Source: a candidate division TM6 bacterium GW2011_GWF2_32_72
Lineage (GTDB): Bacteria; Babelota; Babeliae; Babelales; GWF2-32-72
Direction of reading: 5' to 3'
DNA: 64,000 nt
NCBI GenBank assembly: GCA_000989525.1
Contig: LBON01000001.1
Coordinates: 8,096-72,095 of the forward strand
This document shows, piece by piece, positions 15,789 through 57,169 of the stretch. Made by a program: the position numbers and the translations under genes. The stretch's first letter is position 1; each line of letters begins with the position of its first letter. The notes below the pieces were generated by a model, which was given only the letters and a program-made list of their open reading frames with translations, was not told the DNA's origin and searched no databases.

Positions 15789-15799
15789 TTGGAGCATAA

Positions 15800-22596: not shown

Positions 22597-22689
22597 ACAA
22601 TCGATATATTATTAACAGAACTGTTGCAAAATTTTAAAATATTTACTTAAGCTTACTTATATAAATATCCAATTAAATAAGGAGCTAAG

Positions 22690-39074: not shown

Positions 39075-41780
39075 TTAAACTCGACCAACTTTTAATTCGA
39101 TCATATTATTAGTATTCAAAACCTTCTTTGCTGCATCAAGAACCTCTTCTTTTGATATTTTTTCAAGTTTAGAAATTCTTGTATCAAAATAATCTGCTGG
39201 AAATCCAAACCTATCTAAAAATAAGAAAGTCGAAGCTATACTTGCATTTGATGAGAAGAAATTTATCAAAGCACTTTCAACAGCACGCTTGGCTTCTTCA
39301 AGCTCTTGATCTGTCATATTGTTTGCAGACGTATTAATAGTAGCCTTAATAACATCAACTGCCTCCTTTAATCTATCATTAGAAACAATTGTCTTAACTA
39401 TGCAAATACCTGGTTGAATATCTGCGCCAGAAATTAAAGAACCCGCAATTGTATAAAATAAACCTGATTGTTCGCGAAGATCAAATAATCGTGAACTCAT
39501 AGATCCAAGGGCGCCACCACCAAAAACCTGATCAAACAAAAGCAACTTTTCATAATCCTTATTTAATCTATCAATAGAAAGTCCCGCAAAAGAAAGAACT
39601 GTTTGATCCCTATTAATTGGATAATTAATAACCTTAAATTCAACCGGTTCTAATTTAGGGAAATGAACATCTTCAACTAAACCGCCTTTCCAAGAAGACA
39701 AACATTTATTCAAAGATTTATTTATATCATATTTACCTAAATCACCAACAATGGATATCTTTGCTCCCCTTGGTGAAATATTCTTATTATAAAAATCAAC
39801 CAAATCCTTTTTTGTAATAGAATTTATACTTTCAATCGTTCCTAGAGAACATTTACTATATGGATGATTCTTATAAATATGTTCACTCAATATTTGATTG
39901 CTAAATTTTGTAGGTGTATCCCAAAAATATTTAACATCAGAAAGAATTTGTGCTCGAACTTTTTCAACTGATTTTTCATCAAAAATTGATCTGCATAAAA
40001 TTTCTTCCAATATCTCTAAACCCTTTTCAAAATCTTGAGAAAGCATGCTCAAATGAATATAGCCAGGTGTTGTTGCAATAGTCATTCCATATTGTTCAAT
40101 TTCCTGAGCAAGTTCTGTTGCTGTATAATTTTTTGTACCCTCTAGCAACATTTCACTAACAAAACTTCCCAGCCCTTGTTTATTTTCTGGATCATAATAG
40201 GATTTTGCTTTAAGTTCGAGAACCAAACAAATCTTTGGTATATGCGAATCATTATAATAAAAAACTTTGGCTCCATTTGATAATTCAAACTTGCTTGCTT
40301 TAGGAAAATCAAACCTATCTAATTGTTTAGGATTAACTTTATTTGCATAATTAGGTTCTTCAACCAATGATTCTCTTTGCTTATCAGATAAAAATTCAGT
40401 GTCCTGTTTATCTGATTCTTCCTGCATCTCAAGCCAAACAGCCTTTTCTTTTTCTTCTATAGGTAAAACAAAACCCTTATGCATCATAGAAGGGCGCAAA
40501 TATTTAGAAGCTATAGCCTTTATTTCTGCCTCAAGCGTTGATGAATCATGGTTCATATAATCAAACATATAGTTTTCATCACCTGTTGCTAAATAAGTTC
40601 TGCCAATAAATTGAGCCTGACTTTGATTATTTTCTAAAACAGATAAAAATGAAGAAAGCGTTTTTTTAATAGCTCGCTGCAATTCTTTTTCACCAATTCC
40701 CTTTTCTACTATCGACCTAATTTCTTCATCGATAATTTGTTCAATTTTTTCAACATCTTTTATATCTTTTGGCTGGAAGAAAATTAAAAACAAACCATAA
40801 TCAAATAAATCTTCTGAATATGTATCCAAACTTGTTACCAACTGAAGTTCATCAACAAGCCTTCTTTGTAATCTAGAACTTTTACCAGAGCCTATAATTC
40901 TATTCATGATGTCTAAAACATAATCTTTTTTAGACTTAGCGCCAGGAACAACAAAAGCGAATATTCCCACGGGTTCATTAATATCTCTATGTAAAACAAT
41001 TGTCCTAGAAACCAAATCAGGATTGTGATAATAAGTTTCGCGCTTGTAATTATGGTTAGGTTTAATATGCTTAAAGTTGCGTTCAGCCTCGTCAAAAACA
41101 ACATCTGGTTCAACGTCACCAACAACAACTAATGTTGCGTTATTTGGAACATAATGTTTTTTATAAAATGCGTCCAAATTTTCTCTAGTCAAACTCCAAA
41201 GATCCTGTTTGTAACCAATTATTGGATTATGATAAGGGTGATCCGGGAACACTTCTGATATTAAATTATCTATCAATGCGTGAGTTGCATCGTCCTTATA
41301 CATTTTTAATTCTTGAATAACGGCCTTTAACTCAGAATTAAGCATGTCTGTTTTAAAAGTGCAACCAGTCATGCAATCTGCAAAAACCGGCAAAGCTTCT
41401 TTCCAGTTGCTTTTAGGCAAATCGAATAAATAACCTGTGTAATCATAAGAAGTAAACGCATTTGCAGAACCAGAAAGTTTATGGGTCAACATATTAATAT
41501 CAGACTCTGAAAGTTTTTTGGTGCCCTTAAAAATCATATGTTCAATAAAATGGGCCAAACCCTTTTCACCCGACTTTTCATCTTTGGAACCAACCCCATA
41601 CCACAACTGCAAAGATACCTTTGGAATTTTATGGTTTGGATAAACCAAAACAGTTAATCCATTTTTTAAAACCTTTTTAAAAACCTTTTGGTTTGCAACC
41701 ACTGGCATAGGACAAGACCCTTCCAAATAAAAAAATCCAATTAAACAACAAAAAAAACAATTAAAAAAACGAAGCCTCAT
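39075..41780 (-). CDS. Secreted double-module M16 (pitrilysin/insulinase-family) zinc peptidase.
   Basis: A signal peptide precedes the inverted zinc motif HFIEHMIFKGT (HxxEH). The 901-aa length fits two M16 active/inactive halves. Confidence 0.8.
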   Translation of the reverse strand: MRLRFFNCFFCCLIGFFYLEGSCPMPVVANQKVFKKVLKNGLTVLVYPNHKIPKVSLQLWYGVGSKDEKSGEKGLAHFIEHMIFKGTKKLSESDINMLTHKLSGSANAFTSYDYTGYLFDLPKSNWKEALPVFADCMTGCTFKTDMLNSELKAVIQELKMYKDDATHALIDNLISEVFPDHPYHNPIIGYKQDLWSLTRENLDAFYKKHYVPNNATLVVVGDVEPDVVFDEAERNFKHIKPNHNYKRETYYHNPDLVSRTIVLHRDINEPVGIFAFVVPGAKSKKDYVLDIMNRIIGSGKSSRLQRRLVDELQLVTSLDTYSEDLFDYGLFLIFFQPKDIKDVEKIEQIIDEEIRSIVEKGIGEKELQRAIKKTLSSFLSVLENNQSQAQFIGRTYLATGDENYMFDYMNHDSSTLEAEIKAIASKYLRPSMMHKGFVLPIEEKEKAVWLEMQEESDKQDTEFLSDKQRESLVEEPNYANKVNPKQLDRFDFPKASKFELSNGAKVFYYNDSHIPKICLVLELKAKSYYDPENKQGLGSFVSEMLLEGTKNYTATELAQEIEQYGMTIATTPGYIHLSMLSQDFEKGLEILEEILCRSIFDEKSVEKVRAQILSDVKYFWDTPTKFSNQILSEHIYKNHPYSKCSLGTIESINSITKKDLVDFYNKNISPRGAKISIVGDLGKYDINKSLNKCLSSWKGGLVEDVHFPKLEPVEFKVINYPINRDQTVLSFAGLSIDRLNKDYEKLLLFDQVFGGGALGSMSSRLFDLREQSGLFYTIAGSLISGADIQPGICIVKTIVSNDRLKEAVDVIKATINTSANNMTDQELEEAKRAVESALINFFSSNASIASTFLFLDRFGFPADYFDTRISKLEKISKEEVLDAAKKVLNTNNMIELKVGRV

Positions 41781-41872
41781 AATTCCAACTCCCCAAAAGC
41801 TAATGTTTAATTTTAAGAAAAAACTGATATATTAAAACAAGTTTTCATATAAAGTATAGAAGTTAGACCATA

Positions 41873-42991
41873 ATGACAAGACAACCAATCAATTTTAATG
41901 CTTTTTCATTTAACCTGCCCTGGGTTCCTCCACTTATTATTGAAGCGAGCAGCTTAATGCTTGGAATTTCAATAGGGCACTCAATGCCTTCCTGGATAGG
42001 TATGTTAACCGCTTTGCTAAGTTTATATTTTACAATTAAATTAAGTACATTTTCACAACCGTTAATTTGTGCCTGCTGTTTTACGTTTGGTGTAATTTCT
42101 CTGCAAATTCAAAAAGATTATTACTCAAATCTGTATACAATAACCCAAAATAAAAACTTTAGTATTGTTGGTACAGTAGAAGAAATTTCAGAAAACATAG
42201 ATAACAAATTTCCATATTTAACTGTAATAACAACAAAAAAAATAAAGCCTTATAGTGTTAAAAAGTGGTTAAACTCTGAGCACAAAATCCAAATTTACTC
42301 AATAAACAAACCCTATGTTCAACCCGGTGATAAAATATTTGTAAGAAAAATAAAAATAAGTAAGCCTAAAAATTCTTTTCTTAACCACTTAATAAAAGAA
42401 GGAGCATCAGGAACGTTTTTTACGAATACCTTCTATGCAAAAAAATTAAAAAAAGATGAGTCCTATCTTCAAAAATTAGAAAAATTCAAAAAACAATTGT
42501 TGTTAAAACTAAAAAATAAAATCAATCCTGAAAGTTATTCTCTAGTTAGTTCTGTTTTTTTTGGACAAAAAAGTGAAAACAAACAACAAACTATCGAACA
42601 AAAAAACAATTTTAAAACCTGGGGGCTATCGCATCAGCTAGCCAGATCAGGACTGCATTTGGCAATTTTTATTTTATTATGGCAAATACTGCTTTCTTTT
42701 ATTCCCATTCATATCAAAATCAAACAAATTACAGTTCTTTTAATGGGATCAATATATGGCCTATTAACCTGGTGGAGCATCTCATTTTTTAGAGCTTTTT
42801 TATGTTTTTTTCTTTATAAAACCAATGAACTTTTTGAACTTCAATCAAATTTTACATATCTACTTACTCTAACGTGCTTAATTTCCCTAGTTTTTAATCC
42901 AATTCAATTATTTTTCTTGGATTTTCAACTAAGCTTTGCGCTTACTTTTGCCCTTTCTACAACAGGATTGTTTAAGACTAATCAAATATAA
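41873..42991 (+). CDS. ComEC/Rec2-family membrane protein, truncated to the N-terminal portion (OB-fold region plus the start of the competence domain). It lacks the metallo-beta-lactamase domain.
   Basis: N-terminal TMs are followed by a DUF4131-like OB segment, then ...WGLSHQLARSGLHLAIFILLWQIL (the ComEC tGl.HLlaISGlH pattern). The ORF ends after 372 aa with no continuing frame. Confidence 0.45.
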   Translation: MTRQPINFNAFSFNLPWVPPLIIEASSLMLGISIGHSMPSWIGMLTALLSLYFTIKLSTFSQPLICACCFTFGVISLQIQKDYYSNLYTITQNKNFSIVGTVEEISENIDNKFPYLTVITTKKIKPYSVKKWLNSEHKIQIYSINKPYVQPGDKIFVRKIKISKPKNSFLNHLIKEGASGTFFTNTFYAKKLKKDESYLQKLEKFKKQLLLKLKNKINPESYSLVSSVFFGQKSENKQQTIEQKNNFKTWGLSHQLARSGLHLAIFILLWQILLSFIPIHIKIKQITVLLMGSIYGLLTWWSISFFRAFLCFFLYKTNELFELQSNFTYLLTLTCLISLVFNPIQLFFLDFQLSFALTFALSTTGLFKTNQI

Positions 42992-43081
42992 ATTTATTCA
43001 AACCATTGACTCATAAGCCAACAATAAAATAAACTTAAATTTGAGTATTAATAAAAGGGGATCTTTCTTTAGGGGGAAATA

Positions 43082-44521
43082 ATGAAGAAAACCATATTCT
43101 GTATATCTAATCTTTTCTTAACGGCCGCATTTTTTGCAACGGTTCATTCCACAGACCAATCATTTGAAAGTTTTTATCCTGAAAATTACAGCACAAAAAA
43201 CATAACAGACAAGGAATGCACAGAAGAAATAAAATCACCAAAACAAACAAAAAAGTGGACCATAATGGTTTATATGGCGGCAGATAACGATTTAAGAAGA
43301 TACGCCATTCAAAATATTGAAGAAATGTTAAAAATTGGATCAACAAACTATGCCAATATGATAATTCATTTAGATATAAGAGAAAATCAAAAGAAAAAAG
43401 TTACACACAGATACTTTGTTGAACCAAATAAACTAACCAAATTAAATACACAAAGTAATGAACAGTGTATGGATAGTGGAGCGCCAGAAACATTTATCGG
43501 ATTTTGCAAACAAGCCATCCAATTATTTCCAGCAGAAAAATATGCTGTAATATTCTGGAATCATGGAACTGGTCCACTGGACCCATATAGAAGTAAAATT
43601 TTAAATCCAAATAACTTCTTTAAATACAACCCTAATAATGATGTGCTAGAAATTGACAGGTCTTTGGCATTCTTTGATTCAATAGAAGAGGAAAGCACAC
43701 TATCTGCCATCGCGCCTAAACCAGAAGGACGAGGAATTTGTTTTGATGACTCAACAAGAAATTATATCACAAATGCAAAATTAGATACCTGCTTAGAACA
43801 AGTTAGAAAAGAAGCATTGAATAATGCAAAGTTTGATATAGTTGGCTTTGACGCTTGCTTAATGAGCGGAATTGAAATTGCAAATATTGTAAAAAAACAC
43901 AGCAAAATTATGATAGCCTCTCAAGAAATTGAGCTTGCAGCAGGATGGAAATATGATAAAATTCTCCAAGCTCTTCAACAAGCAAATGTTTCAGCAGAAA
44001 GTCTTTCAAAGACTATAGTTGATATCTATAGACATGCGTACAATCCAATAACAAAAGACCTAACTCTTTCTGCTTTAAATATGGATGCCATACAACATAT
44101 CGAAAACAATATTAACATCGTCTCTCAATTGCTAAATAGCGCACTAGATTTACAAAATGAACAAAGTGTTATAACGCAACTTAAGGATTGTAGAAACAAA
44201 CACAAATGCACACAATTTGAAGAGCCAAGCTATGTTGACCTTGGACATCTTTATAAAAACCTTGCTGCCGCCACAAACTCAATGAAGTTAGTAGATGCAG
44301 AAAAGGAAAAACAATTCCATAAAGATTTTAAATTAGCTATATCAGAAGGCTTAAAATTGATTGATCAAAGCATTATAGATATATACACAGGGGGCAACAT
44401 CAAAGAGGCCAAAGGTATTTCAATATACTTCCCTGAAAAAAGAATTCACAACTCATACCCGTACACACCATTTGCAAAAACAAATAATTGGATAAACCTA
44501 TTGCCTAAATATTTTAAATAA
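43082..44521 (+). CDS. Secreted clostripain-like (peptidase family C11) cysteine protease.
   Basis: A signal peptide precedes WTIMVYMAADNDL... The His block is AVIFWNHGTG and the Cys block is VGFDACLMSG, matching the C11 His/Cys dyad context. An RBS (aaagggg) is present. Confidence 0.65.
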   Translation: MKKTIFCISNLFLTAAFFATVHSTDQSFESFYPENYSTKNITDKECTEEIKSPKQTKKWTIMVYMAADNDLRRYAIQNIEEMLKIGSTNYANMIIHLDIRENQKKKVTHRYFVEPNKLTKLNTQSNEQCMDSGAPETFIGFCKQAIQLFPAEKYAVIFWNHGTGPLDPYRSKILNPNNFFKYNPNNDVLEIDRSLAFFDSIEEESTLSAIAPKPEGRGICFDDSTRNYITNAKLDTCLEQVRKEALNNAKFDIVGFDACLMSGIEIANIVKKHSKIMIASQEIELAAGWKYDKILQALQQANVSAESLSKTIVDIYRHAYNPITKDLTLSALNMDAIQHIENNINIVSQLLNSALDLQNEQSVITQLKDCRNKHKCTQFEEPSYVDLGHLYKNLAAATNSMKLVDAEKEKQFHKDFKLAISEGLKLIDQSIIDIYTGGNIKEAKGISIYFPEKRIHNSYPYTPFAKTNNWINLLPKYFK

Positions 44522-44609
44522 TAAAAAACAAACTAAAGGGATACTTCTTAAACGAATTTTTTTCATGTAATCTTTTTTATGCAATCTTCAAAAAAAGAAA
44601 GTTAATTCC

Positions 44610-45173
44610 ATGAACAAAATAAATGAATTAGAAAAACTTAAACAAATGTATATAAATTGCACCTCCTGCCCGCTCGCAAAACTTGGCCGCACACAGGTTG
44701 TTTTTGGCTGCGGCAACCCTAATGCCAAATTAATGTTAATCGGGGAAGCACCAGGCAAAAATGAAGACATTCAAGGCGAACCATTTGTTGGCAGGGCAGG
44801 AAAGCTTCTTGCACAAATATTAGAATCTTGTGGAATTAACCGCAAAGACATTTATATAACAAACATTGCAAAATGCAGACCGCCACACAACAGAACTCCT
44901 CTGCCAGAAGAATCAAAAGCCTGCAAAACGCTTATCTTGGAAAAGCAAATAGAAATAATTCAGCCAAAAATAATCTGCACACTCGGCTCATGCGCAACAC
45001 AAGCCATTTTGGGGCGTCCTGTTCAAATAACAAAAGAAAGAGGCCAAACTATAAAAACCAATCTTGGCCTTATTCTTCCAACATTGCATCCGGCATACAT
45101 TTTACGCAATAAAACTAAATATAAATTATTGGCAGAAGACATTGAGTCTGCGATAAAATTTTCAAAAAGCTAA
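44610..45173 (+). CDS. ung: Uracil-DNA glycosylase, family 4.
   Basis: The Fe-S cysteines (CTSCPL) and the family-4 motifs GEAPGKNEDIQGEPFVGRAGKLL and HPAY are present. Confidence 0.85.
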   Translation: MNKINELEKLKQMYINCTSCPLAKLGRTQVVFGCGNPNAKLMLIGEAPGKNEDIQGEPFVGRAGKLLAQILESCGINRKDIYITNIAKCRPPHNRTPLPEESKACKTLILEKQIEIIQPKIICTLGSCATQAILGRPVQITKERGQTIKTNLGLILPTLHPAYILRNKTKYKLLAEDIESAIKFSKS

Positions 45174-45210
45174 AACATTACTCCAAAGAACACTAAATAC
45201 AAATAGAAAA

Positions 45211-45252
45211 TGTGGATAACTTGTGGATAACCTGTGGATAACTTGTGGATAA
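45211..45252 (+). promoter_or_regulatory. Array A of four perfect DnaA boxes (TGTGGATAA orientation) at exact 11-bp spacing.
   Basis: tgtggataa occurs at 45211, 45222, 45233 and 45244. Confidence 0.8.
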
Positions 45253-45364
45253 CTCAAAAAACAATAATTTTAAAATATCTAGAAACGTCTAGCCAGAGCA
45301 TAATTCGGCAAATCAGAAAAACCAAAATGTCGGCTGGAAAGAGTTATTCGACACGTCAAAAAAG

Positions 45365-45417
45365 TTATCCACAAGTTATCCACAAGTTATCCACAGGTTA
45401 TCCACAGGTTATCCACA
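45365..45417 (+). promoter_or_regulatory. Array B of five perfect DnaA boxes (TTATCCACA orientation) at 11-bp spacing, inverted relative to array A.
   Basis: ttatccaca occurs at 45365, 45376, 45387, 45398 and 45409. Confidence 0.8.
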
Positions 45418-45499
45418 TTGCGCAAAAGTCTGGATTTGACGTATAGAAGAAAGTATACACAGAAAAGACTCGCCCAAATTTCCCCAAAAAGACGCTCAC

Positions 45500-45660
45500 C
45501 TATTATTATTAATTAATAATATAAGATATATATATATAAATAATTACAGACCATTTAAAAATTTGGTTTATATAAAAAAGCGATAATCTTCCATTTTCTA
45601 AAAAATTATATAAACTAAAAGGCATGACTTTAAAGCCATATATTAATTAATAACTAGTTA
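45500..45660. other. AT-rich putative DNA-unwinding element adjacent to the DnaA-box arrays.
   Basis: Stretches such as ttattattaattaataatataagatatatatatataaataattaca are nearly 100% A/T over tens of bp. Confidence 0.5.
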
Positions 45661-45666
45661 GGTCTT

Positions 45667-46758
45667 ATGAAAAATACTATAAATTTATTAGAAGTGATCC
45701 AAAGCTTAGAAGAAGAGCGCGGTCTTGATCGAGCTGTTCTTGCGGATATTGTTTGCGAAGGCATGCTTGCAGCATATTCAAAAAAATATCCAGATTTAGA
45801 GCTTAAAGTTTCCCTTGATCAAAAAACAGGCGACCTTGTTGTAGAGGTTAAGAAAAATATTGTAACATCAGTCGAAAATTCTGAATCTGAAATTACTGTG
45901 CGAAAAGCAAAGGGTTTTGACACTAAGGCTGAGGTGGGCGGAGAAATCTGGCTACCATTCGATGAAGAAATTGGCCGAGTCGAAATCTTGCGAGCAAAGC
46001 AGGTGATTACCGGAAAAATTCGAGCCGTGGAAGCGCTTGCCGTTTACAACGAATTTATTGGGAAAAAGGGCACCATTGTTGTTGGCGTTATTCATAAATG
46101 CGAGTTCGGTGGAGCCTCAGTGAAGCTTCAAGATGATGCGATGGCGTTTTTACCAAAATCTTTAACGCTACCATCAGACAAATGTGTTCCGGGACATCCT
46201 GTGCGAGCATTGTTGAAAGAAGTTTACGAAGAGCCTAGAAAAGAAAATCAACTTATTCTTGATCGAGCATCTGCTGAATTTTTGCAGCGATTGGTTGAGT
46301 TGGAAGTTCCAGAGGTTTTTGAAAAGATAGTGGAAATAAAAAAAATAGTTAGAGCTCCTGGCTACAAGTCCAAAATGGTTGTTGCTTCGAATGATAAAAA
46401 CATTGATCCTGTTGGAACATGTGTTGGTGTTGGTGGTGGTCGTATAAAGCCTATCTTAAAAGAAATTGGCGGAGAAAGAATTGATATAATTTCTGCTTCC
46501 GGCAGTCTTGAAAGCTTTATAAAAGATGCCCTTAAGCCTGCAGAGGTTAGTCGGGTTGAGATTAAAGGCGATGATTCTGTGAATGTTTGGTTAGAAGATG
46601 ATCAACGCTCTTTGGCTATCGGTAAAATGGGCCAAAATATTTCTCTTGCCTCACAGCTTGTTGGAAGACATATTAATTTGGTTCAATCACAGGAATCTGC
46701 GGAACGAGATGCTTTGGTTGATGATGAAGCGAATGGCGCTTTTGATGATGAAGAATAA
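45667..46758 (+). CDS. nusA: Transcription termination/antitermination factor NusA.
   Basis: An N-terminal domain, an S1 domain and two KH domains are present (IDPVGTCVGVGGGRIKPILKEIGGERIDII). The tail is acidic. Confidence 0.9.
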   Translation: MKNTINLLEVIQSLEEERGLDRAVLADIVCEGMLAAYSKKYPDLELKVSLDQKTGDLVVEVKKNIVTSVENSESEITVRKAKGFDTKAEVGGEIWLPFDEEIGRVEILRAKQVITGKIRAVEALAVYNEFIGKKGTIVVGVIHKCEFGGASVKLQDDAMAFLPKSLTLPSDKCVPGHPVRALLKEVYEEPRKENQLILDRASAEFLQRLVELEVPEVFEKIVEIKKIVRAPGYKSKMVVASNDKNIDPVGTCVGVGGGRIKPILKEIGGERIDIISASGSLESFIKDALKPAEVSRVEIKGDDSVNVWLEDDQRSLAIGKMGQNISLASQLVGRHINLVQSQESAERDALVDDEANGAFDDEE

Positions 46759-46781
46759 TTTTTAGTATTTAGAGTGGGCCC

Positions 46782-48800
46782 ATGCGAATATATGAAACGG
46801 CAAAACAATTTGGTGTGACAAGTAAAGATTTGATAGAAATTCTGTCAGGTGCAGGATTTGATGTTCAGACTCACATGTCTGTAGTTTCGGATGACGCATT
46901 GGCTTTTTTAAATAAAAAGTATTCTAAAACAGCTCCTGTTACGCCTAAGTCTTTAGAAAAAAAAGAACAAGAAAAGACTCCTGAAAAAAAATCTTCGGCT
47001 AAAAATAAGCCTGCTGAGAACAAAAAGTCGGTTGCGCATAAAGCTCCTGCTAAAGCTTCTATTGAGAAAAAAATAGAAGTTAAAGAGGTTGCTCCGGTTG
47101 TTATTTTAAAAGCGATGACTCTTTCTGAGTTGGCCGGGCAAATGCAAAAACCTGTTACCGAATTGATAACGACTTTGTTAAAGCAAGGCGTTGTTTATGG
47201 CATGAATCAAATTTTGCCTGTTGAATTGGTAGAAACTTTGGCTGAATTTTTTGAGATACCTATTCAAAAAACAGAAGAAGCGTCTGTAGCTGTTAAGTCA
47301 GACATAGCAGCTGAAGAAAATTTTAAAAACTTAAAATCAAGAGCTCCAGTGGTGGCCGTTTTAGGTCACGTTGATCATGGAAAAACATCCCTTTTGGATT
47401 TTATTAGAAAAACTCGAGTTGCACTTAAGGAAAAGGGTGGAATTACCCAGCATCTTGGTGCATATCAAGCAACCACTTCTCATGGCCCTATAGTTTTTTT
47501 AGATACACCAGGACATGAAGCTTTTTCTTTAATAAGAGAAAGAGGTGTTCGGGCTGCAGACATTGTTATTTTAGTAATTGCTGCAGATGATAGTATCATG
47601 CCTCAAACAGTTGAGGCTATTAAATATGCTAAATCCATGGAAACGCCTATTGTTGTTGCTATAAATAAAATGGATAAAGTGGATGAGGCTCGAATTGAAG
47701 TTGTTCGTAGGGGCATGTCTCAATACGATTTACTACCAGAAGAGTGGGGCGGGGATGTTATTAGCGTACCTGTATCTGCAAAAACTGGAAAAGGCGTAGA
47801 CAAACTTTTAGAAATGATTTCCCTTCAAGCTGAAATGATGGATTTAAAGGCGGACGCTTCTGTTCCGGCTCGTGGCTTTGTCCTTGAATCTAAGGTTGAA
47901 GTAGGTCGAGGTGCTGTTGCGACAATCATTTGCAAGCATGGCACTTTGCAAGTTGGAGATTATTTTGTTTGCGGCAAGACTGTGGGCAGGGTAACTTCGA
48001 TGACCAATTCTTATAATGAAAGACTCAAATCTGTTGGGCCATCTATACCAGTTTTAGTTGCTGGATTTGAAGCTCTTCCTGCTGCGGGAGACTTTTTTGA
48101 GGTTGTTTCTGCTGAAGAATATAAAAATAAAAGATTTGAAAAACCGGCATCTAAGCCATTTCTCGGCTTTGATTTTGGTCAAGAGTATTATGGTTTAATA
48201 TTAAAAGGCGATACACATTCTTCCGTTGAAGCCATTGAAGAATCGATTAATAAATTAAATCCAGATCTTGAGGGCGACAAAAAATTTAAAATCCTTGAAA
48301 GAGGTGTTGGTGGTGTCACTGAAGGCGATGTTGCCATGGCCGATAGCACTAAGTCTTTGATTGTTGCATTTAATGTTAAGACCGATCCGGGTGCTATTGC
48401 ATTAGCCAAAAGAAATCATGTTGTTATTAAGCACTATAATATTATTTATAGGCTGTTAGATGAGCTTCAAGAAATAGCAAAGGCTGGCAAGACAATCGAA
48501 ATGGAATGGAAGAAAACTGGCGAAGCTGTTATCCGAAAAGTATTTGCTATAAAAGGTGTGGGCGTTGTTGCTGGAGCTTATGCTAATGAAGGTGTTTTGC
48601 GAGCAAAAGGCTCTAAGGTTATGGCTTGGAGAGGTAAGCAAAAAATAGGCGAAGGCACAGTTGATAGCCTTCAAAGAGACAAAAAAAATGTTAAAGAAGT
48701 TCATGCTGGTTATGAATGCGCCTTCTTGATTAAGGGCATTGATGATTGGCAAGTTGATGATAGAGCCGAATTTTATATAGAGGTTCCAAAACTTGATTGA
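46782..48800 (+). CDS. infB: Translation initiation factor IF-2.
   Basis: G-domain motifs VVAVLGHVDHGKTSLLD, DTPGHEAF and NKMD are present. The IF-2 beta-barrel domains are C-terminal. Confidence 0.95.
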   Translation: MRIYETAKQFGVTSKDLIEILSGAGFDVQTHMSVVSDDALAFLNKKYSKTAPVTPKSLEKKEQEKTPEKKSSAKNKPAENKKSVAHKAPAKASIEKKIEVKEVAPVVILKAMTLSELAGQMQKPVTELITTLLKQGVVYGMNQILPVELVETLAEFFEIPIQKTEEASVAVKSDIAAEENFKNLKSRAPVVAVLGHVDHGKTSLLDFIRKTRVALKEKGGITQHLGAYQATTSHGPIVFLDTPGHEAFSLIRERGVRAADIVILVIAADDSIMPQTVEAIKYAKSMETPIVVAINKMDKVDEARIEVVRRGMSQYDLLPEEWGGDVISVPVSAKTGKGVDKLLEMISLQAEMMDLKADASVPARGFVLESKVEVGRGAVATIICKHGTLQVGDYFVCGKTVGRVTSMTNSYNERLKSVGPSIPVLVAGFEALPAAGDFFEVVSAEEYKNKRFEKPASKPFLGFDFGQEYYGLILKGDTHSSVEAIEESINKLNPDLEGDKKFKILERGVGGVTEGDVAMADSTKSLIVAFNVKTDPGAIALAKRNHVVIKHYNIIYRLLDELQEIAKAGKTIEMEWKKTGEAVIRKVFAIKGVGVVAGAYANEGVLRAKGSKVMAWRGKQKIGEGTVDSLQRDKKNVKEVHAGYECAFLIKGIDDWQVDDRAEFYIEVPKLD

Positions 48801-49819
48801 TTAGCGCTTTAAAGGAGAGAGAAGTGTCTGATTTTTTGTTATCTATATTCTTTTGTTTAATTAATTCATTTTGGTTTGCAGCGAGTTTTGCTCCCATTTG
48901 TATTTATTTTGCAAAAAAATTTAATATAGTTGATGTTCCAGATGGACGAATTAAAATACATAAACAACCAACCCCTTATTTAGGCGGGTTGGTTGTTTAT
49001 TTTGGTTTAATGGTTGGTTCTTTTATTTTTTTACCAAATATTTCTACATTTACACTGATGTTGTTTGCATTATTTGGGTTAGTTTTGTTATTGGGTTTGC
49101 TGGACGATTTAATATTTTTACACCAAGGGATAAAGTTTTTGGGAATCGCAGTCCTATCCTTTTTTTTCTTATTAACTATTAATCATTTTATAGGCTTAGG
49201 CGATCATTTTTGGATTAAGTTTATTATCTATTGGGTTTGGATTATGTCTATTACCAACGCCTTTAATTTAATAGATATTATGGACGGCCTGTCTTCTACA
49301 TCTGTGTTTTTCCCGGCGGCATTTTTTCTTTTCGTGGCTATTTATCAGGGAAATTATCTTGCAACAATTTTGATTGCTTCTTTTTTGGGTGGAATTTTAG
49401 GCTTTTTCATTTTTAATGCGCCGCCTGCAAAAATATATATGGGTGATTCTGGCTCGCTTTTGTTGGGTTGTTTTATCTCAGTTGTGCCCTTGTTGTTAAA
49501 TTGGGAAAGCTTTGGATTGACAGGCTATTCTTTACCGATAATTGTTTTGGCAATTCCATGTCTTGAGGTTTTTGCATTAATTATTATTCGGTCTTATAAA
49601 AAGATTCCATTTTATTTAGGAAGTCCAGATCATTTTGCGATTTATCTTCAAAAAAGTGGCTGGTCAAAGTGGGGAGTGTTGGGTTTAGTCTCAATCCTAT
49701 CTTTGGTTGAAATTTTTGCGTGCCTTTCATATGTAATTTTTAACTTTAACTTTTTTGGGCTTGTTGTGGCTGGGGTTTGGTTTTTAATTGCATGGATCTT
49801 CTTAATATTCATTCTTTAG
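48797..49819 (+). CDS. Polyprenyl-phosphate N-acetylhexosamine-1-phosphate transferase of the MraY/WecA family.
   Basis: Multi-TM protein carrying the LLDDLIF (DDxxD) and NAFNLIDIMDGLSS (NAxNxxDGxDGL) motifs. The start overlaps the infB stop (ATGA). Confidence 0.65.
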   Translation: MISALKEREVSDFLLSIFFCLINSFWFAASFAPICIYFAKKFNIVDVPDGRIKIHKQPTPYLGGLVVYFGLMVGSFIFLPNISTFTLMLFALFGLVLLLGLLDDLIFLHQGIKFLGIAVLSFFFLLTINHFIGLGDHFWIKFIIYWVWIMSITNAFNLIDIMDGLSSTSVFFPAAFFLFVAIYQGNYLATILIASFLGGILGFFIFNAPPAKIYMGDSGSLLLGCFISVVPLLLNWESFGLTGYSLPIIVLAIPCLEVFALIIIRSYKKIPFYLGSPDHFAIYLQKSGWSKWGVLGLVSILSLVEIFACLSYVIFNFNFFGLVVAGVWFLIAWIFLIFIL

Positions 49820-50013
49820 CTTTTTGTTGCAAATTTTTGTTTTTGTTGTTTTTTGCATCACAAAAATAAAAAAAAGCTTTATTTAAGGCGTTTTTTTATG
49901 TTGCGTTTTTTTCTTTTAATAAAAAATTGTTTTTTGTGTTGTCTAGTTCATATTTGACATAGCTTACATTGATTGGTTGTAATTGAGGTTACACTGTATA
50001 CCAAAATGGAGGG

Positions 50014-50084
50014 GTGCAGATTTTAGTTAAAGGGTTTTAAGCTACGGTTTTCTTCCCAGCTCACCTAGAATCTGCACTTTTTTT
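50014..50084 (+). terminator. Long-loop hairpin followed by a T7 run. This is a possible terminator or small structured RNA.
   Basis: 9-bp stem gtgcagatt/aatctgcac enclosing a 46-nt loop, followed by ttttttt. Confidence 0.35.
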
Positions 50085-50152
50085 ATGTGTTTTTTTTATT
50101 AATTTTAAATATCTATTCAGGTTTGTTTTTATAAAGTATCTGTTAAAGAGGG

Positions 50153-51016
50153 TCAAACTATAAGTTTTTTTAATGTTTTTAGGTTAATTTGATCTTCTTT
50201 TAGATCTTTATCTTTAGGGGTTTCTAATATTTTGGGAACATTAATTAAATTTTTATCGTTCATAATGAGCCTAAATGCTTCAATTCCAATTTTGCCTTTA
50301 CCGATGTTTTCATGGCGGTCTTTTTGTGAGCCTTGGTCGAATTTGGAGTCGTTAACATGTATTGCTTTAAGGTTGGCAAGGCCCAAGACGTCATCAAAAT
50401 GTTTCCACATTATTTTATATGATTTTGGATTGCTAAAGTCATACCCAGCTGCAAACGCGTGACAGGTATCAAAACAGAAGCCTATTTTTTCCTTGTGTTT
50501 TATGTGTTTGCGAATTTCTGCAAGTTGTTCAAATGTTTTTCCTAAAGAGCTGCCTTGTCCTGCCATAGTTTCAAGAAGAATATTGGTTTTCGTTGAAATT
50601 TGTTCCAACGCGTTATCAATATTTTCTGCAACTATTAATAACGCGTCCTGAATAGAGCTCTCCAGGCTTGATCCTGGATGTAAAACTAAATAAGGTATGC
50701 CAAGTTGCTCGCATCTTTCTAATTCAATGGCAAGGGCTTCAATTGATTTTTTTTGAATGTCTTTGTCTGGCGATGCTAAATTTATAAGATAAGAGGCGTG
50801 TGCTATTACTACTTCCACAGATGAGTTTTTCCAGGCTAATTTAAAATCAGATATTTCTTTTTCAGTTATTTGTTTTGCCCTCCATTGTCTATTGCTTTTT
50901 GTGAATATTTGAATTGCGGTGCAATTTATTGATTCTCCTTTTTCAATTGCTTTGTCAAATCCATCAGAAATTAACATGTGTGCGCCAAGCAATGGATTTT
51001 TTAGGTTATGTGACAT
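50153..51016 (-). CDS. nfo: Endonuclease IV (AP endonuclease family 2).
   Basis: TIM-barrel Nfo blocks are present (…VVIAHASYLINLAS…LVLHPGS…CFDTCHAFAAGYD…AIHVNDSK…). Confidence 0.85.
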   Translation of the reverse strand: MSHNLKNPLLGAHMLISDGFDKAIEKGESINCTAIQIFTKSNRQWRAKQITEKEISDFKLAWKNSSVEVVIAHASYLINLASPDKDIQKKSIEALAIELERCEQLGIPYLVLHPGSSLESSIQDALLIVAENIDNALEQISTKTNILLETMAGQGSSLGKTFEQLAEIRKHIKHKEKIGFCFDTCHAFAAGYDFSNPKSYKIMWKHFDDVLGLANLKAIHVNDSKFDQGSQKDRHENIGKGKIGIEAFRLIMNDKNLINVPKILETPKDKDLKEDQINLKTLKKLIV

Positions 51017-51144
51017 AAATTCTCCATAAAAAGTTGAACATTTTTTTATTCCATTTAATCGGTTGTATCAGTTTTTATTGACAAAGGCCACTCTTATTTT
51101 AATCTATTCGTTTTGTTGTAAATCATTACAGTTTCGAGGGTTAT

Positions 51145-53136
51145 ATGAGTTTTAAAAAAGGCGGTCTTTTTGTATTAACTGCGTTGTTATTTAATTTTAT
51201 ATCTGCATCTGAAAAATCTAATAATGAATTGATTATACCTTTTCATAAAGAAAGTCCTGTGCATTTTAGAGAAAATGATATTGAATTTCAGTTTAAATTA
51301 AATCAAAGAACAGAGGCTTTTTTGGGAGAGTGGACGACTTACTTCAATACCCATGAAAGCTCAGATCAAATTTTTTATATACAGCATACTTTAGATGCTG
51401 AAGCCTATGCGGCTTATGGCTGTGAACGATTTGGTTCGAAGGTATTAGAGCTTGTGGGTGGAATGAGAAATCAGGCTATATTTGGTACGCCGGATTCCAT
51501 AGCTCAGACAACAGAAAATGAAATAAATGCAATAAACATGAATTTTGGCGCACATTATCATTTTTTACATAAACATTTAGTGTGGATGAAAGAGGCTTGG
51601 TTAAAATTTTCTTTGGATCATGCTTTTAAGTGTGAACATTCGCCGATTGATCCTGCTTATTTTATAAAGGCAGGTTATTTTTCGTTTGAGTTGGGCAGAG
51701 GTATTTCTTTGGGCGATGCATTTGCAGTCAATTCAGAGGTATTGGGCTTTTTTGGAAAAACATCGATTGTTGATCAGTTTGCACCAGGTTTACTTATCAG
51801 CGGTAAATGTTTAAAGGATCGCTGCACCTATGATTTTTATTTGTCTACTATTGATAATCAAGATACTGATTTAGAAAAAACATCAGAAAAAATTTATTCA
51901 CAAATGTATAAAAAAAGGAATCAAATTAATGGTTTATATAGAGGGCCTTTTCATATAGCAACCATTGCTGCAAGTAGATTAAAATGTAAAGTAGTTGATC
52001 AAAAAGTAGATAGTGGAGTGGCAGAGCTTTATGGTTTGTGGTTATATGATCCTGAACAAGATGTAGAGACTAAAGCTGATGCTAAATCGAATTTGTATAC
52101 AGTTGGTGTTTCTGGAGAATTTCATTTAGGAAAAGTGGAGTTTGGTTTTGATACAGCTAAAAACTTTGGTTCACAATTTGTTTTCGCTCTTGATCGAAAT
52201 AAAAAAAGTTTAGCTGAAAATACAGAATATGTTGGGGCAGCAACTGTAGTGAATAGCCATATTGTTTTAAATGATGATTCTGGAAAAGAAGTGTTGGGTG
52301 CACCATATGGTGTACAAACCTCAAAAAATAGAAGCGTTCAAACACTTGTTAATGATTGTGAGGTTGGGGAGGCCTTTAATGGTAAACAATTGGGGCTTGC
52401 AGATGAAACGGTGACCATTGGTGAGGATCAATCTTATAAAATTTACAATGCTGAAGATCGCTTTAGGAATTCTTATTATAATAAATTTTCGGGCGTTATG
52501 TTTGTCTCTGATGTTTGTTATTGGGTCAAGCCGGAAGATTTTTTTGTGGCCGCAGCATTTGGCTATGCTTCAGGTGACGGAGATCCTCAAATAGAAACTA
52601 AAGACAAGACATTTAAAGGATTTATCCCGGTACAGTCTGTTTATTCTGGCGGGGATAAAGTTCGAAGCTTTTTTGTTTTGGGTGGAGGCGGAAGTCTTAA
52701 GCGTATTATTTCGATTCAGCATAAGAGCAATGAAGCTACAACCATATCAGGGCTTACGGATTTGATGTATGTAGGTATTAGCGCAAAGCGAGCACCGGCA
52801 GATTGTGAACAAAAATGGTATTTTAATCCCAACGTTTTAGCTTATTGGAAGACACATCCGCTCAAAGAATATTTGAATTGTTTCAGTATTCCAATTGATG
52901 ATGAAGATGCTAATCCATGTACGGATAGACAAATAGAATTGAGTCGTTTTTTAGGAATAGAACTTAATATCTTTGCGGGTTATTCAATATTTGAAAGTAT
53001 CGAAGCCTTTTTTGCTGGTTCAGCGTTTATTCCAGGACATTTTTTTGAGGAGAGAAAAGAAGATTTATTGGGCGATTATGTTTTGGGTGATGATATTGGA
53101 TTCAGTTTAAACTTTGGTTTTAACTATCATTTCTAA
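51145..53136 (+). CDS. Outer-membrane beta-barrel protein, tandem paralog 1.
   Basis: A signal peptide is present. The body is G/Y/F-rich and beta-strand-like. The C-terminus is FGFNYHF. It is about 60-65% identical to the downstream gene. Confidence 0.6.
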   Translation: MSFKKGGLFVLTALLFNFISASEKSNNELIIPFHKESPVHFRENDIEFQFKLNQRTEAFLGEWTTYFNTHESSDQIFYIQHTLDAEAYAAYGCERFGSKVLELVGGMRNQAIFGTPDSIAQTTENEINAINMNFGAHYHFLHKHLVWMKEAWLKFSLDHAFKCEHSPIDPAYFIKAGYFSFELGRGISLGDAFAVNSEVLGFFGKTSIVDQFAPGLLISGKCLKDRCTYDFYLSTIDNQDTDLEKTSEKIYSQMYKKRNQINGLYRGPFHIATIAASRLKCKVVDQKVDSGVAELYGLWLYDPEQDVETKADAKSNLYTVGVSGEFHLGKVEFGFDTAKNFGSQFVFALDRNKKSLAENTEYVGAATVVNSHIVLNDDSGKEVLGAPYGVQTSKNRSVQTLVNDCEVGEAFNGKQLGLADETVTIGEDQSYKIYNAEDRFRNSYYNKFSGVMFVSDVCYWVKPEDFFVAAAFGYASGDGDPQIETKDKTFKGFIPVQSVYSGGDKVRSFFVLGGGGSLKRIISIQHKSNEATTISGLTDLMYVGISAKRAPADCEQKWYFNPNVLAYWKTHPLKEYLNCFSIPIDDEDANPCTDRQIELSRFLGIELNIFAGYSIFESIEAFFAGSAFIPGHFFEERKEDLLGDYVLGDDIGFSLNFGFNYHF

Positions 53137-53179
53137 TTGACAAAGATGCGTCTTATTTTAGTCTATCATTTGCGTTTAG

Positions 53180-55216
53180 TTGTTATATTTCAAGAGGGAT
53201 TTTATGGATATTAAAAATAATTATTTTTTAGGGTTAGTTTTATTGGCTTCAAATTGTGTGTTTGCGCAAGAGCAGAAAACAGAAGATAAGAAGACAGCTA
53301 AAACAGTTGTTCCCTTTAATAAAATATCGCCAGCTCATTTTTTTGATAACGATACTGAATTTAAATTTAATTTAACTAACAGGTCAGAAGCTTTTTTTGG
53401 TGAATGGACAACCTATTTAAATCATAGTGTACCTCAAGATCAAATGTTGTTTGCAAGGCATACGTTAGATGCAAAAGTAACAATTGGTTATGGACAAAAT
53501 CGTTATGGCTGTAAAGTTGTTGAAATGGGTGCAGGTATGCGAAACAGGGCTATTTGGGGAACTCCTGATTCTATTGCGCAAACAACAAGAAATGAAATTC
53601 CAAGTATGGGTGCAAATTTTGGTGCTCACTTCCACTACTTACATAAACATTTTATTTGGATGAGAGAGGCTTGGTTGAAATTTTCTTTAGACCATGCATT
53701 TAGATGTATGGATGATTCACAGCCTCAAGTAGATCATTTTATTAGACTTGGATATTTTTCATATCAGTTAGGTCGAGGTATTTCTTTGGGAGATGCTTTT
53801 GCCGTTAACTCTGCCTTTTTAGGTTTCTATGGAAAAAGTTCTATTGTCGATCAATTTGCTCCTGGATTACAAATTAGTGGTAAATGTATAAAAGGTCGTT
53901 GCAATTATGATTTTTATCTTTCCACAGTAGACAATAAAGACACAGATTTAGATAAAACAGGTCAAAAAATTTACACTCAAATGTATGAAAGAAGAAATCA
54001 GACAAATGGTGAAATTAGAGGAGCATTCCATATAGCAACAATTTTAGCAGCAAGATTAAAATGTAAAGTTATTGATCAGCCAAAAGATAAAGGCAATGCA
54101 GAGCTTTATGGTTTATGGTTTTATGATCCAGAACAAATGGTTGAGCTTCCTGCTGATACAAGATCAAATCTTTACACTATTGGCGCTGCCGGTGAATTTA
54201 ATTTAGGTAAAATAGAATTTGGTTTTGATTGTGCTAAAAACTTTGGTTCGCAGTTTGTATTGGGAATTGATCGTAACAAAAAGTCATTAGAAGAAAATAA
54301 AGATTCAATAGGCGCTGTAACATTAACAAACAGCCACGTTGTGTTGAATAATGCATCAGGCACAAAAGTTTTGGGCGCTCCTTATGATGTAAAAACAAGC
54401 AAAGACAGAAGTGTTCAAAGACTTGTTACGGATTGCGATACTGGTGAATATTACAACGGCAAACAATTGGGTTTTGAAGATGAAACCATGGTGACTGTTG
54501 TTGGAGGAACCCCATATAATATTTATAACGCAAGCGATAGATTCAGAAATTCTTATACTAATAAATTTAATGGGGCAATGTTTGTTACAGATGTAAGTTA
54601 TTGGGTTGTTCCAAAAGATTTTTATATAGCAACGGCTTTTGGTTATGCCTCTGGTGGAGACAATCCTCATACTCGCCACAATGATGAAACATTTACAGGT
54701 TTTATTCCTGTGCAATCTGCTTACGCTGGTGGTGATAAAGTTCGCAGCTATTTTGTTCTTGGTGGTGGTGGAAAATTAAAACGAATTCTTTCTTATAAAC
54801 GTAAAAACAGCGTGGCTGCAACAGTTTCTGGTTTTACAGATTTGATGTACATTGGTATCGGTTCCAAGTGGGCACCCGTTAAGTGCAATAAAAAATGGTA
54901 TATTCATCCAAATGCTTTGATCTATTGGAAGACACACCATATTGCAGAATATGTTGATTGTAATACTAATGTTGCTTCAGATGAAAGAACCAATTCTTGC
55001 ACCGAACAAGAAAGGCTTGCAAGTAACTTTTTGGGATCTGAACTAAATTTATTTTTGGGATATCATACATTTGAAAGTTTAGAGTTCTTTTTTGCCGGCT
55101 CTTTCTTTATTCCGGGCAATCATTATACGGAAAGAAAGGGTGATTTAGCTGGTGATTATCCATTGGGAGATGATCCTGCATTCGCCTTAAACTTTGGTTT
55201 TAACTATAGGTTCTAG
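53180..55216 (+). CDS. Outer-membrane beta-barrel protein, tandem paralog 2.
   Basis: A signal peptide is present. The C-terminus is FGFNYRF. Long identical blocks are shared with paralog 1 (RNEI...NFGAHFHYLHKH.IWM.EAWLKFSLDHAF). Confidence 0.6.
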   Translation: MLYFKRDFMDIKNNYFLGLVLLASNCVFAQEQKTEDKKTAKTVVPFNKISPAHFFDNDTEFKFNLTNRSEAFFGEWTTYLNHSVPQDQMLFARHTLDAKVTIGYGQNRYGCKVVEMGAGMRNRAIWGTPDSIAQTTRNEIPSMGANFGAHFHYLHKHFIWMREAWLKFSLDHAFRCMDDSQPQVDHFIRLGYFSYQLGRGISLGDAFAVNSAFLGFYGKSSIVDQFAPGLQISGKCIKGRCNYDFYLSTVDNKDTDLDKTGQKIYTQMYERRNQTNGEIRGAFHIATILAARLKCKVIDQPKDKGNAELYGLWFYDPEQMVELPADTRSNLYTIGAAGEFNLGKIEFGFDCAKNFGSQFVLGIDRNKKSLEENKDSIGAVTLTNSHVVLNNASGTKVLGAPYDVKTSKDRSVQRLVTDCDTGEYYNGKQLGFEDETMVTVVGGTPYNIYNASDRFRNSYTNKFNGAMFVTDVSYWVVPKDFYIATAFGYASGGDNPHTRHNDETFTGFIPVQSAYAGGDKVRSYFVLGGGGKLKRILSYKRKNSVAATVSGFTDLMYIGIGSKWAPVKCNKKWYIHPNALIYWKTHHIAEYVDCNTNVASDERTNSCTEQERLASNFLGSELNLFLGYHTFESLEFFFAGSFFIPGNHYTERKGDLAGDYPLGDDPAFALNFGFNYRF

Positions 55217-55230
55217 TTATAAATTATGTA

Positions 55231-55262
55231 AAATGGGCCAGTTAATCTGGCCCATTTTTTGT
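55231..55262 (+). terminator. Rho-independent terminator after the OMP pair.
   Basis: Stem aaatgggcca/tggcccattt with a 7-nt loop and a T-run. Confidence 0.7.
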
Positions 55263-55402
55263 GCACAATTTTGATTTGTGATACGCTTTAAATTATATTT
55301 TTAACATTTTTGTGTTGAAATTGAGATTTGTTAGTTTGTTTTTAGCAAAACATTTTTAACAAAATATAAAGTTGGTTTTAAAAAGATTTTTTAAGGAACA
55401 AA

Positions 55403-57169
55403 ATGGCATTTTTTGAAAAAACTATTGCTTGTGGTCTGGTCAACAAAAGTTTAGTTGGCAAAGAAGTTACCCTTGTTGGTTGGGTTAATAAAAGAAGAGA
55501 CCTTGGAAAATTAATTTTTATAGATTTAAGAGACCGTGAAGGTTTAATGCAAGTTATTTTTAGTTCAGAGTTTTCAGAACCTGCCCACGAACTTGCACAC
55601 TCTCTTCGTCCAGAGTTTGTGATTCAAGTTACAGGTAAAGTTGTAGAAAGAGTTGGTGATATTAATAAAGATATGCCAACTGGTGCCTTAGAATTACAGG
55701 CAACATCATTAGAAATTTTAAATGAATCAAAGCCTTTGCCATTTTCTTTAACTAGCGCAGATGAAATTGATGAAGAGTTGCGATTGAAATATCGTTATCT
55801 TGATCTTCGTCGTCCAGAAATGCAAAAAAAATTAGCGCTTAGAAATAAAGTTATTTTTGCAATGCGAAAATTTTTAATTTCAGAAGGTTTTTATGAAGTT
55901 GAGACTCCTATCCTTAGTCGATACACTGTCGAGGGAGCTCGTGAATTTTTGGTGCCTTCTCGTGTGCATAAAAAATGTGTTTACTCTCTTCCTCAATCGC
56001 CACAAATTTTTAAACAAATTTTGATGGGTTCCGGAGTTGAAAAATATTTTCAAGTTGCTAGGTGTTTCCGTGATGAAGCTTTGCGTGCAGATAGACAGCC
56101 AGAATTTACTCAGCTTGATTTAGAAATGTCATTTGCAAAGGATGGTGATATTAGAAGCATTATAGAAAAATTATTGACGTTTGTTTTTGAAAAAGTTTTT
56201 ACAACAAAACTTAAGACACCATTTAATTCGATTGCATACGATGATGCTATGTTTAATTATGGCTCAGATAAACCAGATGTTCGCTTTGAATTAAAAATTA
56301 GAGATTTTACATCTTGCTTTAAAAATACAGAAGTTAAGTTTTTAAAATCTGTATTAGAGTCTGAGGGTAAAATTGGCGGTATTTGTGTGAAGGATCATAA
56401 TTTTTCTAGATCCGCATTAGATAAATGGACCAAGCAAGCACAGGAGTTTGGGGCAAAGGGTCTCCTTTGGATTAAGTTTTCTGAAGACGGAAAATTTGAA
56501 TCACCTATTGCTAAATTTTTACCAGCAAATTTTTTTGATTTGGCAAAGAACATTTGTCCAGAGTTAAAGATGGGTGAAACCTTATTTTTGATGGCTGGCG
56601 AATATGTTGATACTTGGGGCTTGTTGGGTCGTTTAAGATTAGATTTAGCAAAAGAATTAAATTTAATTCCTGCAAATACATCAGCATGGTTGTGGGTTAC
56701 AGATTTTCCTCTTTTTGAATTAGATAAAGAAACTGGCAAGTGGAATCCTGTTCATCATCCATTTACAACACCAGCAAAGGGTTGGGAGAACTTAGCGCCA
56801 GGACAAATGAAGGCAATTGCATATGATCTTGTTTTGAATGGTGTTGAAATTGGTGGTGGTTCTGTGCGAATTCACAAACCAGAATTACAGGCTAAAGTTT
56901 TTGATTTATTAGGTTTAAATAAACAACAAATGGAAGAAATTTTTGGTTTCTTTTTGGCGGTTCAAGAATCTGGTTTACCTCCACACGCAGGGATTGGCTT
57001 AGGTTTAGATAGATTATTAATGTTATTAACAAATTCACCATCAATACGAGAAGTTATAGCATTTCCAAAGACCTTAAAAGGTTATGATTTAATGACAGGA
57101 TCTCCAACATCGATTCCTGAAGAAAAGTTGGAAATGTACGGACTAAAGTTTGTTCCAGAAAAAAAATAG
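55403..57169 (+). CDS. aspS: Aspartyl-tRNA synthetase.
   Basis: Class II aaRS motifs are present ([30 protein letters not shown]). The N-terminal anticodon-binding OB fold is present. GatB is also in the window, so this enzyme may be non-discriminating. Confidence 0.95.

Follow-up and report, generated by a model that had tools for sequence, protein, structure and literature searches.

Gene Neighborhood and DnaA-Box Arrays

In the 64-kb stretch of DNA analyzed here (the window), a single intergenic region separates a UDG-superfamily gene (44610-45173, + strand; PF03167, E 3.8e-37), transcribed toward the arrays described below, from nusA (45667-46758, + strand) and infB (46782-48800, + strand), both of which are transcribed away from them. 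The UDG gene is family-4-like and carries a GEAPG motif, which we take to be typical of family 4; the earlier note, made from the sequence alone, had placed the locus between ung and nusA, and whereas the nusA side of that placement stands, the left-hand gene belongs to the UDG superfamily (PF03167, GEAPG) and is not a classical Ung. A UDG neighbor was found in most relatives as well. The NusA protein matches that of candidate division TM6 bacterium GW2011_GWF2_32_72 at 100% identity. No DnaA or DnaN was detected among the 46 window ORFs of at least 150 aa, which bears out the earlier statement that the window holds no dnaA gene, and dnaA was also absent from a further 8.5 kb leftward, to the end of the ENA scaffold; this leaves ~54 kb on the left of the arrays and 18.6 kb on the right free of dnaA. 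Linkage to dnaA is common for oriC, without being a defining property; in 80 related loci, too, the ±10 kb around nusA held no dnaA.

An exact search of the window returned nine TTATCCACA sites, all of them within 45211-45417. In dinucleotide-preserving shuffles (n = 100) the mean was 0.69 sites per window and the maximum 3, with nine or more sites in 0 of 100. The left array, distal to the candidate DNA-unwinding element (DUE) described below, occupies 45211-45252 on the minus strand and comprises four exact DnaA boxes, reading TGTGGATAA on the + strand, that start at 45211, 45222, 45233 and 45244 and are thus set on an 11-bp period with 2-bp linkers. After an inter-array spacer of 112 bp (45253-45364), the right, DUE-proximal array (45365-45417, + strand) presents five exact copies of TTATCCACA with starts at 45365, 45376, 45387, 45398 and 45409, on the same 11-bp period and directed at the DnaA-trios and DUE. 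Both arrays share a single 11-bp register, as the distance between their first boxes (45365 - 45211) is 154 bp, or 14 x 11. Nine perfect boxes in two opposed arrays, with exactly this period and this spacer, had been proposed in the earlier note, and all of these elements were re-found by exact search. An oriC box cluster has been defined as at least three DnaA boxes with a mean spacing below 100 bp (PMC7561715); here nine exact boxes fall within 207 bp. Elsewhere in the window, outside this intergenic region, there are 18 one-mismatch boxes and no exact one. Additionally, a box with two mismatches, GTATACACA (45453-45461, + strand), lies on the array lattice, 8 x 11 bp from the first box of the right array, and is possibly a low-affinity site.

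The region had also been described as one large inverted repeat. The opposed orientation of the arrays is as stated, but the arms are imperfectly complementary, since their 2-bp linkers differ. A hairpin or cruciform reading was set aside, because the linkers are non-complementary between the arms and what is conserved is the boxes and their step lengths, not arm pairing. A 70-aa ORF that runs across the arrays (45234-45446) has no Pfam family and was treated as spurious, and an Rfam scan of the window at gathering thresholds returned a tRNA-Gly only, with no match at the array locus.

Several other features of the window were recorded along the way. An ORF at 26226-28445 (739 aa) shows two matched stretches each of the N- and C-terminal domains of D-Ala-D-Ala ligase, which suggests a fusion of two Ddl units in tandem. 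The stretch 10813-17392 is taken up by four + strand ORFs in a row (480-618 aa each); three of them have a sensor-domain-like match and are tandem paralogues, and the fourth (12681-14123) has no family match. Two adjacent paralogues of the HAD/beta-phosphoglucomutase family are found at 21835-23442.

DnaA-Trios and a Candidate Unwinding Element

To the right of the arrays lies a second set of elements, in an order that recalls the basal unwinding system (BUS), for which the trio definition, the 3'-GAT-5' consensus and the order of the AT tract have been set out previously (PMC8287927). It opens with a decayed box remnant, ATTTCCCCA (45478-45486, + strand), which has three mismatches and stands 13 bp from the first trio. 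A GC cluster, CGCTCAC (45493-45499), directly precedes the trios and has the counterpart CTC(A/G)C in relatives. The DnaA-trio repeat itself (45500-45511, minus strand) reads CTA TTA TTA TTA on the top strand, that is, 3'-GAT AAT AAT AAT-5' on the bottom strand, and leads into a candidate DNA-unwinding element (45501-45560) of 85-93% A+T. The least stable 40-mer of the whole window starts at 45504 (dG -33.0 kcal/mol, the next best being -35.4) and adjoins CTATTATTATTA, and would provide the adjacent AT-rich unwinding element looked for in an oriC. The motif (YTA)x4 is rare, with only two occurrences on both strands of the 64 kb (128 kb in all). The other occurrence, at 61688-61735, overlaps the second least stable 40-mer (start 61695, dG -35.4) and lies inside an ORF (61246-61818) of a pilus/secretin cluster.

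In the terms of the BUS definition, the window has at least three NAN trios, with a GC cluster ahead of them and with the strand and side that the box orientation prescribes. The same definition calls for a box with at most two mismatches 0-16 bp from the first trio, and the window departs from it in this one respect because ATTTCCCCA has three mismatches, whereas its relatives conform: of the 69 related loci in which a right array and a trio could be recognized, 67 have a trio-proximal box that matches the locus's own consensus with 0-1 mismatch, the two exceptions being a detection error and the window itself. The geometry of the module is nevertheless kept in the window, where the last array box stands 91 bp from the trios as compared with 89-92 bp in 15 relatives, and where the right array has five boxes against the usual four. 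A mirror-image second unwinding module to the left of the left array was considered and rejected: on that side only 37 bp separate the array from the UDG stop codon, and there is no AT-rich tract.

Strand Composition

The cumulative G-C curve of the window reaches its minimum at 45654, within the intergenic region that bears the arrays; this is the minimum of the 64 kb examined, one part of a 294-kb contig from an incomplete MAG. On the left of the arrays bulk GC skew is -0.11 and on the right +0.16, and bulk AT skew changes in the opposite sense, from +0.11 to -0.11. The flip cannot be explained by the direction of transcription, since every flanking gene on either side (comEC, C11 peptidase and UDG on the left, nusA and infB on the right) is read from the + strand. 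GC skew at 4-fold sites, measured on the + strand, is -0.516 for + genes and -0.052 for - genes on the left, and -0.073 and +0.531, respectively, on the right. Solved for two components, these values yield a coding-strand term of about -0.25 and a replication term that passes from about -0.28 on the left to about +0.23 on the right. The sign change of the replication term at the arrays has the polarity of an origin, not of a terminus. The earlier note had reasoned that a skew minimum and a dnaA-linked box cluster elsewhere on the replicon, with no skew inflection at this locus, would point to a titration or regulatory site; within the window the inflection is present, as judged from both the minimum at 45654 and the sign change at the arrays.

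The relatives show a difference of the same kind. When co-oriented genes to the left and right of their arrays were compared, 4-fold GC skew was -0.26 vs. -0.06 (p 1.6e-16) and 4-fold AT skew +0.05 vs. -0.27 (p 7e-77), and AT skew was lower on the right side in all 26 of 26 relative loci, the same direction as in the window. This left-right difference at codon sites in the relatives could in part reflect the expression-linked codon bias of nusA and infB.

Conservation Across the Dependentiae

The region was aligned first with three relatives, whose NusA proteins are 63-65% identical, and later with many more. In about 90 of 96 Dependentiae loci the interval between UDG and nusA follows one layout, namely the left array, ~110 bp, the right array, ~67 bp, a lone box, 13-14 bp, the trios and an AT-rich tract; arrays are missing in only about 4 of the 96. 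The left array of relatives comprises 3-6 boxes (up to 20) and the right array 3-5, with a within-array step of 11 bp in 133 cases and 12 bp in 29. The sequence of the inter-array gap is not conserved but its length is, with the innermost boxes 121 bp apart from center to center in the window and mostly 108-123 bp apart in relatives. The lone box, which has the same orientation, stands 67±1 bp from the last array box in 16 loci, 54-55 bp in four and 77-78 bp in two, classes that differ by steps of ~11 bp. From the lone box to the first trio there are 13-14 bp in 59 of 67 loci; this stretch ends in the GC cluster and is followed by CTATTATTATTA, the AT-rich tract and nusA.

Two scans contributed to this comparison. 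A pattern scan for three boxes in 11-bp phase, restricted to one genome per species, returned at least 119 loci. Forty-nine of the matches listed have dnaA inside the 8-kb block and come from many phyla; the 30 Dependentiae loci listed all share the window's gene neighborhood and none has dnaA, and they include closed genomes, namely that of Vermiphilus pyriformis and several closed MAG chromosomes. A second scan of metagenome contigs, anchored on NusA and thus unbiased with respect to the boxes, gave 80 loci, 67 of them with enough upstream DNA. Searched with the E. coli consensus, 45 of these 67 carry both arrays, six carry one and 16 carry none, and most of the 16 consensus-negative loci have arrays of a variant unit at the same place.

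Some loci are of note for the form of their arrays or for their surroundings. The left array, usually of four boxes, is much enlarged in L025 (JAHDWT010000008.1), with 20 boxes (15 + 5) on an exact 11-bp period, and in L045, with 11. Mirror-image step patterns, with 11, 11 and 12 bp from the inside outward in both arms, were seen in five loci (L003, L021, L032, L048 and L102), and mirror symmetry over the shared length in 14 of 23. Between UDG and the left array, L002 (3965-5452), L005 (3938-5416) and probably L039 carry an ORF of ~495 aa on the opposite strand; it has no Pfam family and is absent from the window. Furthermore, the Dependentiae gene order (comEC, C11, UDG, arrays, nusA, infB) occurs in L017, L021, L045, L057, L066 (titled Pseudomonadota), L076 (Saccharimonadales) and several records named "uncultured bacterium." Where nusA is present in these oddly labeled records it is window-like (E 1e-115 to 1e-143), and their taxonomic labels may be wrong or the bins contaminated.

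Variant Boxes and Their Covariation

The repeat unit is not the same throughout the phylum. Over the 96 loci it is TTATCCACC in 51 and TTATCCACA in 22, the window included; other Dependentiae arrays are built of TTATCAACC, TTATGAACA, TTATGCACC, TTATCCCC, TTATCCAAC, TTATTAACC or CTTTCCACA, and 15 loci upstream of nusA have such variant units. In the variant lineages the trio-proximal box is mostly identical to the array variant, and trio and spacing stay constant. This covariation indicates that a single protein recognizes all of the sites and that selection acts on the layout and not on the exact 9-mer; the pattern resembles concerted evolution of all sites, with DnaA specificity perhaps changing alongside. 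In three of the variant loci (L174, L184 and L189) two box types alternate within an array, giving a super-period of 22 bp, for example GTGCATAA with GTTGATAA or TTGGATAA with TGGGATAA.

These observations lead us to a broader proposal, which we offer tentatively and hold to be somewhat less likely than not. The Dependentiae origin would be fixed, unlinked to dnaA, lattice-phased, two-lobed and ancestral to the phylum, its box sequence having been swapped wholesale several times (TTATCCAC(A/C), and TTATCAACC-TTATTAACC) as the two arrays and the trio-proximal box evolved in concert, DnaA domain IV presumably changing with them. If this is true, the phylum constitutes a natural series for the study of initiator-origin co-evolution, and it possesses an origin that runs wholly on high-affinity sites, in which timing would be controlled at the trio or ATP step and not through graded box occupancy.

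Interpretation of the Locus

Taken together, the boxes and their phasing, the strand-composition switch, the trio, the unstable tract, the conservation of the layout and the covariation of the boxes indicate that this locus is very probably the chromosomal oriC of a Dependentiae (TM6) bacterium, adjoining nusA and not dnaA. An origin was the first of the readings listed in the earlier note, and it gains support from the skew switch, the trio, the most meltable 40-mer and the presence of the module beside nusA phylum-wide.

By analogy with characterized origins, binding of DnaA, formation of a filament, the site of unwinding and the firing of the origin would all be located here, and a sequence of events can be proposed. 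DnaA would fill the two opposed, helically phased, high-affinity arrays and so form two head-to-tail oligomers that face apart. The right oligomer would be aimed at the module of box, GC cluster and DnaA-trios, from which ATP-DnaA may spread along the bottom strand (3'-GAT AAT AAT AAT-5') and melt the AT tract at about 45501-45560, at which helicases would then be loaded. The left array would play a supportive part, like the Right subcomplex of E. coli (PMC9198467). Since the arrays consist only of high-affinity consensus boxes, timing cannot depend on weak sites that are filled in a graded, ATP-dependent manner; we speculate that a switch, if there is any, more likely resides in the trio step or in the decayed proximal box.

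A different role for the same boxes was weighed, namely that the locus is a datA-like site of DnaA titration or inactivation, or a reservoir of DnaA, and does not fire replication. A dense cluster of high-affinity boxes distant from dnaA is what such a site would offer. In E. coli, boxes that are all of consensus sequence bind ADP-DnaA and ATP-DnaA alike, and this indifference to the nucleotide would suit titration. However, a strand-composition switch of origin polarity falls exactly at the arrays, next to them stand a conserved DnaA-trio and the tract of the window that melts most easily, and the Dependentiae matches listed in the pattern scan are all at the nusA locus with none next to dnaA. 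We therefore regard a titration site as very unlikely.

The arrays sit 250-450 bp upstream of nusA in nearly all relatives, a position that would also agree with a locus whose main role is that of a DnaA-controlled operator region of the nusA-infB operon, tying translation and transcription factors to the level of the initiator. DnaA is a known transcription factor. A precedent for regulation of this kind may be seen in Pseudomonas, where boxes of an origin-like region are reported to regulate gidA (PMC13438810). Against this, a simple scan of 44900-45800 found no sigma-70-like promoter on the + strand, nor any terminator after UDG, and nine or more phased boxes, opposed arrays, trios and a skew switch would be superfluous for an operator. 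An operator as the main function thus seems highly improbable to us, and a regulatory role could coexist with origin function.

The assembly was checked against Logan contigs of SRR3309375, which match the window at 100% over 41610-45250 and 45390-56758 and end only inside the arrays, which is how a k-mer graph would behave at an inverted repeat; the inter-array spacer had no exact match among the metagenome contigs searched. That the structure is an assembly artefact, as breaks of short-read graph assemblies within both arrays and a join over the 112-bp spacer that is present in the MAG scaffold only might suggest, or the terminal inverted repeat of a mobile element, is next to impossible in view of ~90 independent assemblies, closed chromosomes among them, that show it in the same gene neighborhood with different spacers and box variants, and of flanks that hold no transposase or other mobile-element gene.

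With the origin reading as the preferred one, the locus can be set beside two origins assigned previously within the phylum. For Chromulinavorax destructans (Dependentiae) a 593-bp region in the middle of the genome, 651,641-652,233 bp, was assigned from GC skew and TTATCCACA (PMC6561590); the assignment takes up one sentence, without anatomy or flanking genes, and concerns the same phylum and the same box as the window. The origin of Babela massiliensis was set 152 nt upstream of dnaA on the basis of GC skew alone (PMC4378268). Two MAGs labeled Babeliaceae (L022 and L117) have nusA-linked arrays and no dnaA nearby, and the dnaA-adjacent origin of B. massiliensis consequently merits re-examination. 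We found no published account of how the Dependentiae arrays are built, of their linkage to nusA or of their box variants. The present assignment would fix the origin in a phylum that has been little studied and whose members, obligate intracellular bacteria, are known mostly from metagenomes, and would be of use for closing and orienting genomes and for estimating growth rates from read depth.

Comparison with Known Origins

The layout can be likened to a more regular form of the E. coli and Bacillus origins. In E. coli oriC, too, two opposed arrays of about four 9-mers are set 2 bp apart on an 11-bp period (PMC6070618; PMC9198467), and the window shows the same bilobed region, as 4 + 5 boxes with 2-bp separation in "<>" order. 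Each half of E. coli oriC carries a cluster of four low-affinity sites 2 bp apart (PMC6070618), which fits the remark in the earlier note that arrays in phase and head to tail have the geometry of DnaA filament nucleation. The outer E. coli boxes, R1 (TGTGGATAA) and R4 (TTATCCACA), have the divergent order seen in the window, and in both cases the DUE, a candidate one in the window, is found past the end of the array that is directed at it. In E. coli MG1655 the last 13-mer ends in TATTAG and is followed by 13 bp and by R1 (TGTGGATAA), which is the reverse complement of the Dependentiae arrangement; R1, 13 bp and TAG-TAT thus agree in polarity and spacing with the box, 13-14 bp and trios of the Dependentiae. 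Counted on the sequence, R1 and R5M, the latter of which we take to be TGTGAATGA, are 55 bp apart, a distance equal to the short class of 54-55 bp in Dependentiae.

The E. coli arrays consist of low-affinity ATP-DnaA sites nucleated from R1 and R4, whereas all nine array boxes of the window are the exact high-affinity consensus. The Dependentiae have a longer inter-array gap (~110 bp) and no GATC clusters, and their neighboring genes are UDG and nusA and not gidA and mioC. No conserved sequence, including an IHF-like one, was seen in the gap between the right array and the box across 17 anchored loci; an ATCAA-like motif is present in that gap in a few relatives only.

The module to the right of the arrays resembles the BUS of Bacillus subtilis, with its DnaA-boxes 6/7, and of other bacteria, where a box, 13-14 bp ending in a GC cluster, CTA/TTA repeats and an AT-rich tract follow one another in the same order, on the same strand and with the same spacing (PMC8287927). 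It differs in that most Dependentiae have one recognizable box before the trios, the position of the second box being degenerate, and in that the module stands beside nusA and not between dnaA and dnaN. In the Bacillales, the dnaA-dnaN spacer of a Kroppenstedtia (L114) reads TTATCCACA c TATCCACAG CCC CTACTACTACGACTATTA and then enters an AT-rich tract, with the polarity of the window. The trio of C. difficile, written CACCTACTACTATTACTACTATGA, agrees with the window trio in orientation.

With datA the window shares a cluster of DnaA boxes distant from dnaA. The E. coli datA has no unwinding element, trios or skew switch, and needs IHF; the window, by contrast, is not a cluster without origin features, having a skew switch, trios and an unstable tract.

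Paired phased arrays are also found outside the phylum. Among the matches listed for other phyla, arrays of at least three boxes at 10-12 bp are paired in the "<>" order at 17 loci and in the "><" order at four, the exceptions being three Bifidobacterium loci and one Sarcina locus. The "<>" examples include one Pseudobdellovibrionaceae locus (5 + 5 boxes; L044), one of Meiothermus (L116), two of Chloroflexia (L034 and L113) and two of Spirochaetaceae (L033 and L064). Four triple phased-box matches within ~200 bp were also recorded on the 3,828-bp plasmid pSOE2 of Candidatus Pantoea edessiphila (NZ_CM009570.1; L078). Many of the paired arrays of other phyla lie beside dnaA with gaps of 13-80 bp, whereas those of the Dependentiae are unlinked to dnaA and have a gap of ~110 bp. 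The Dependentiae locus would be a very regular, natural example in which two models that are usually treated apart are joined, namely the opposed arrays in 11-bp phase known from E. coli and the unwinding by box plus trio known from Bacillus.
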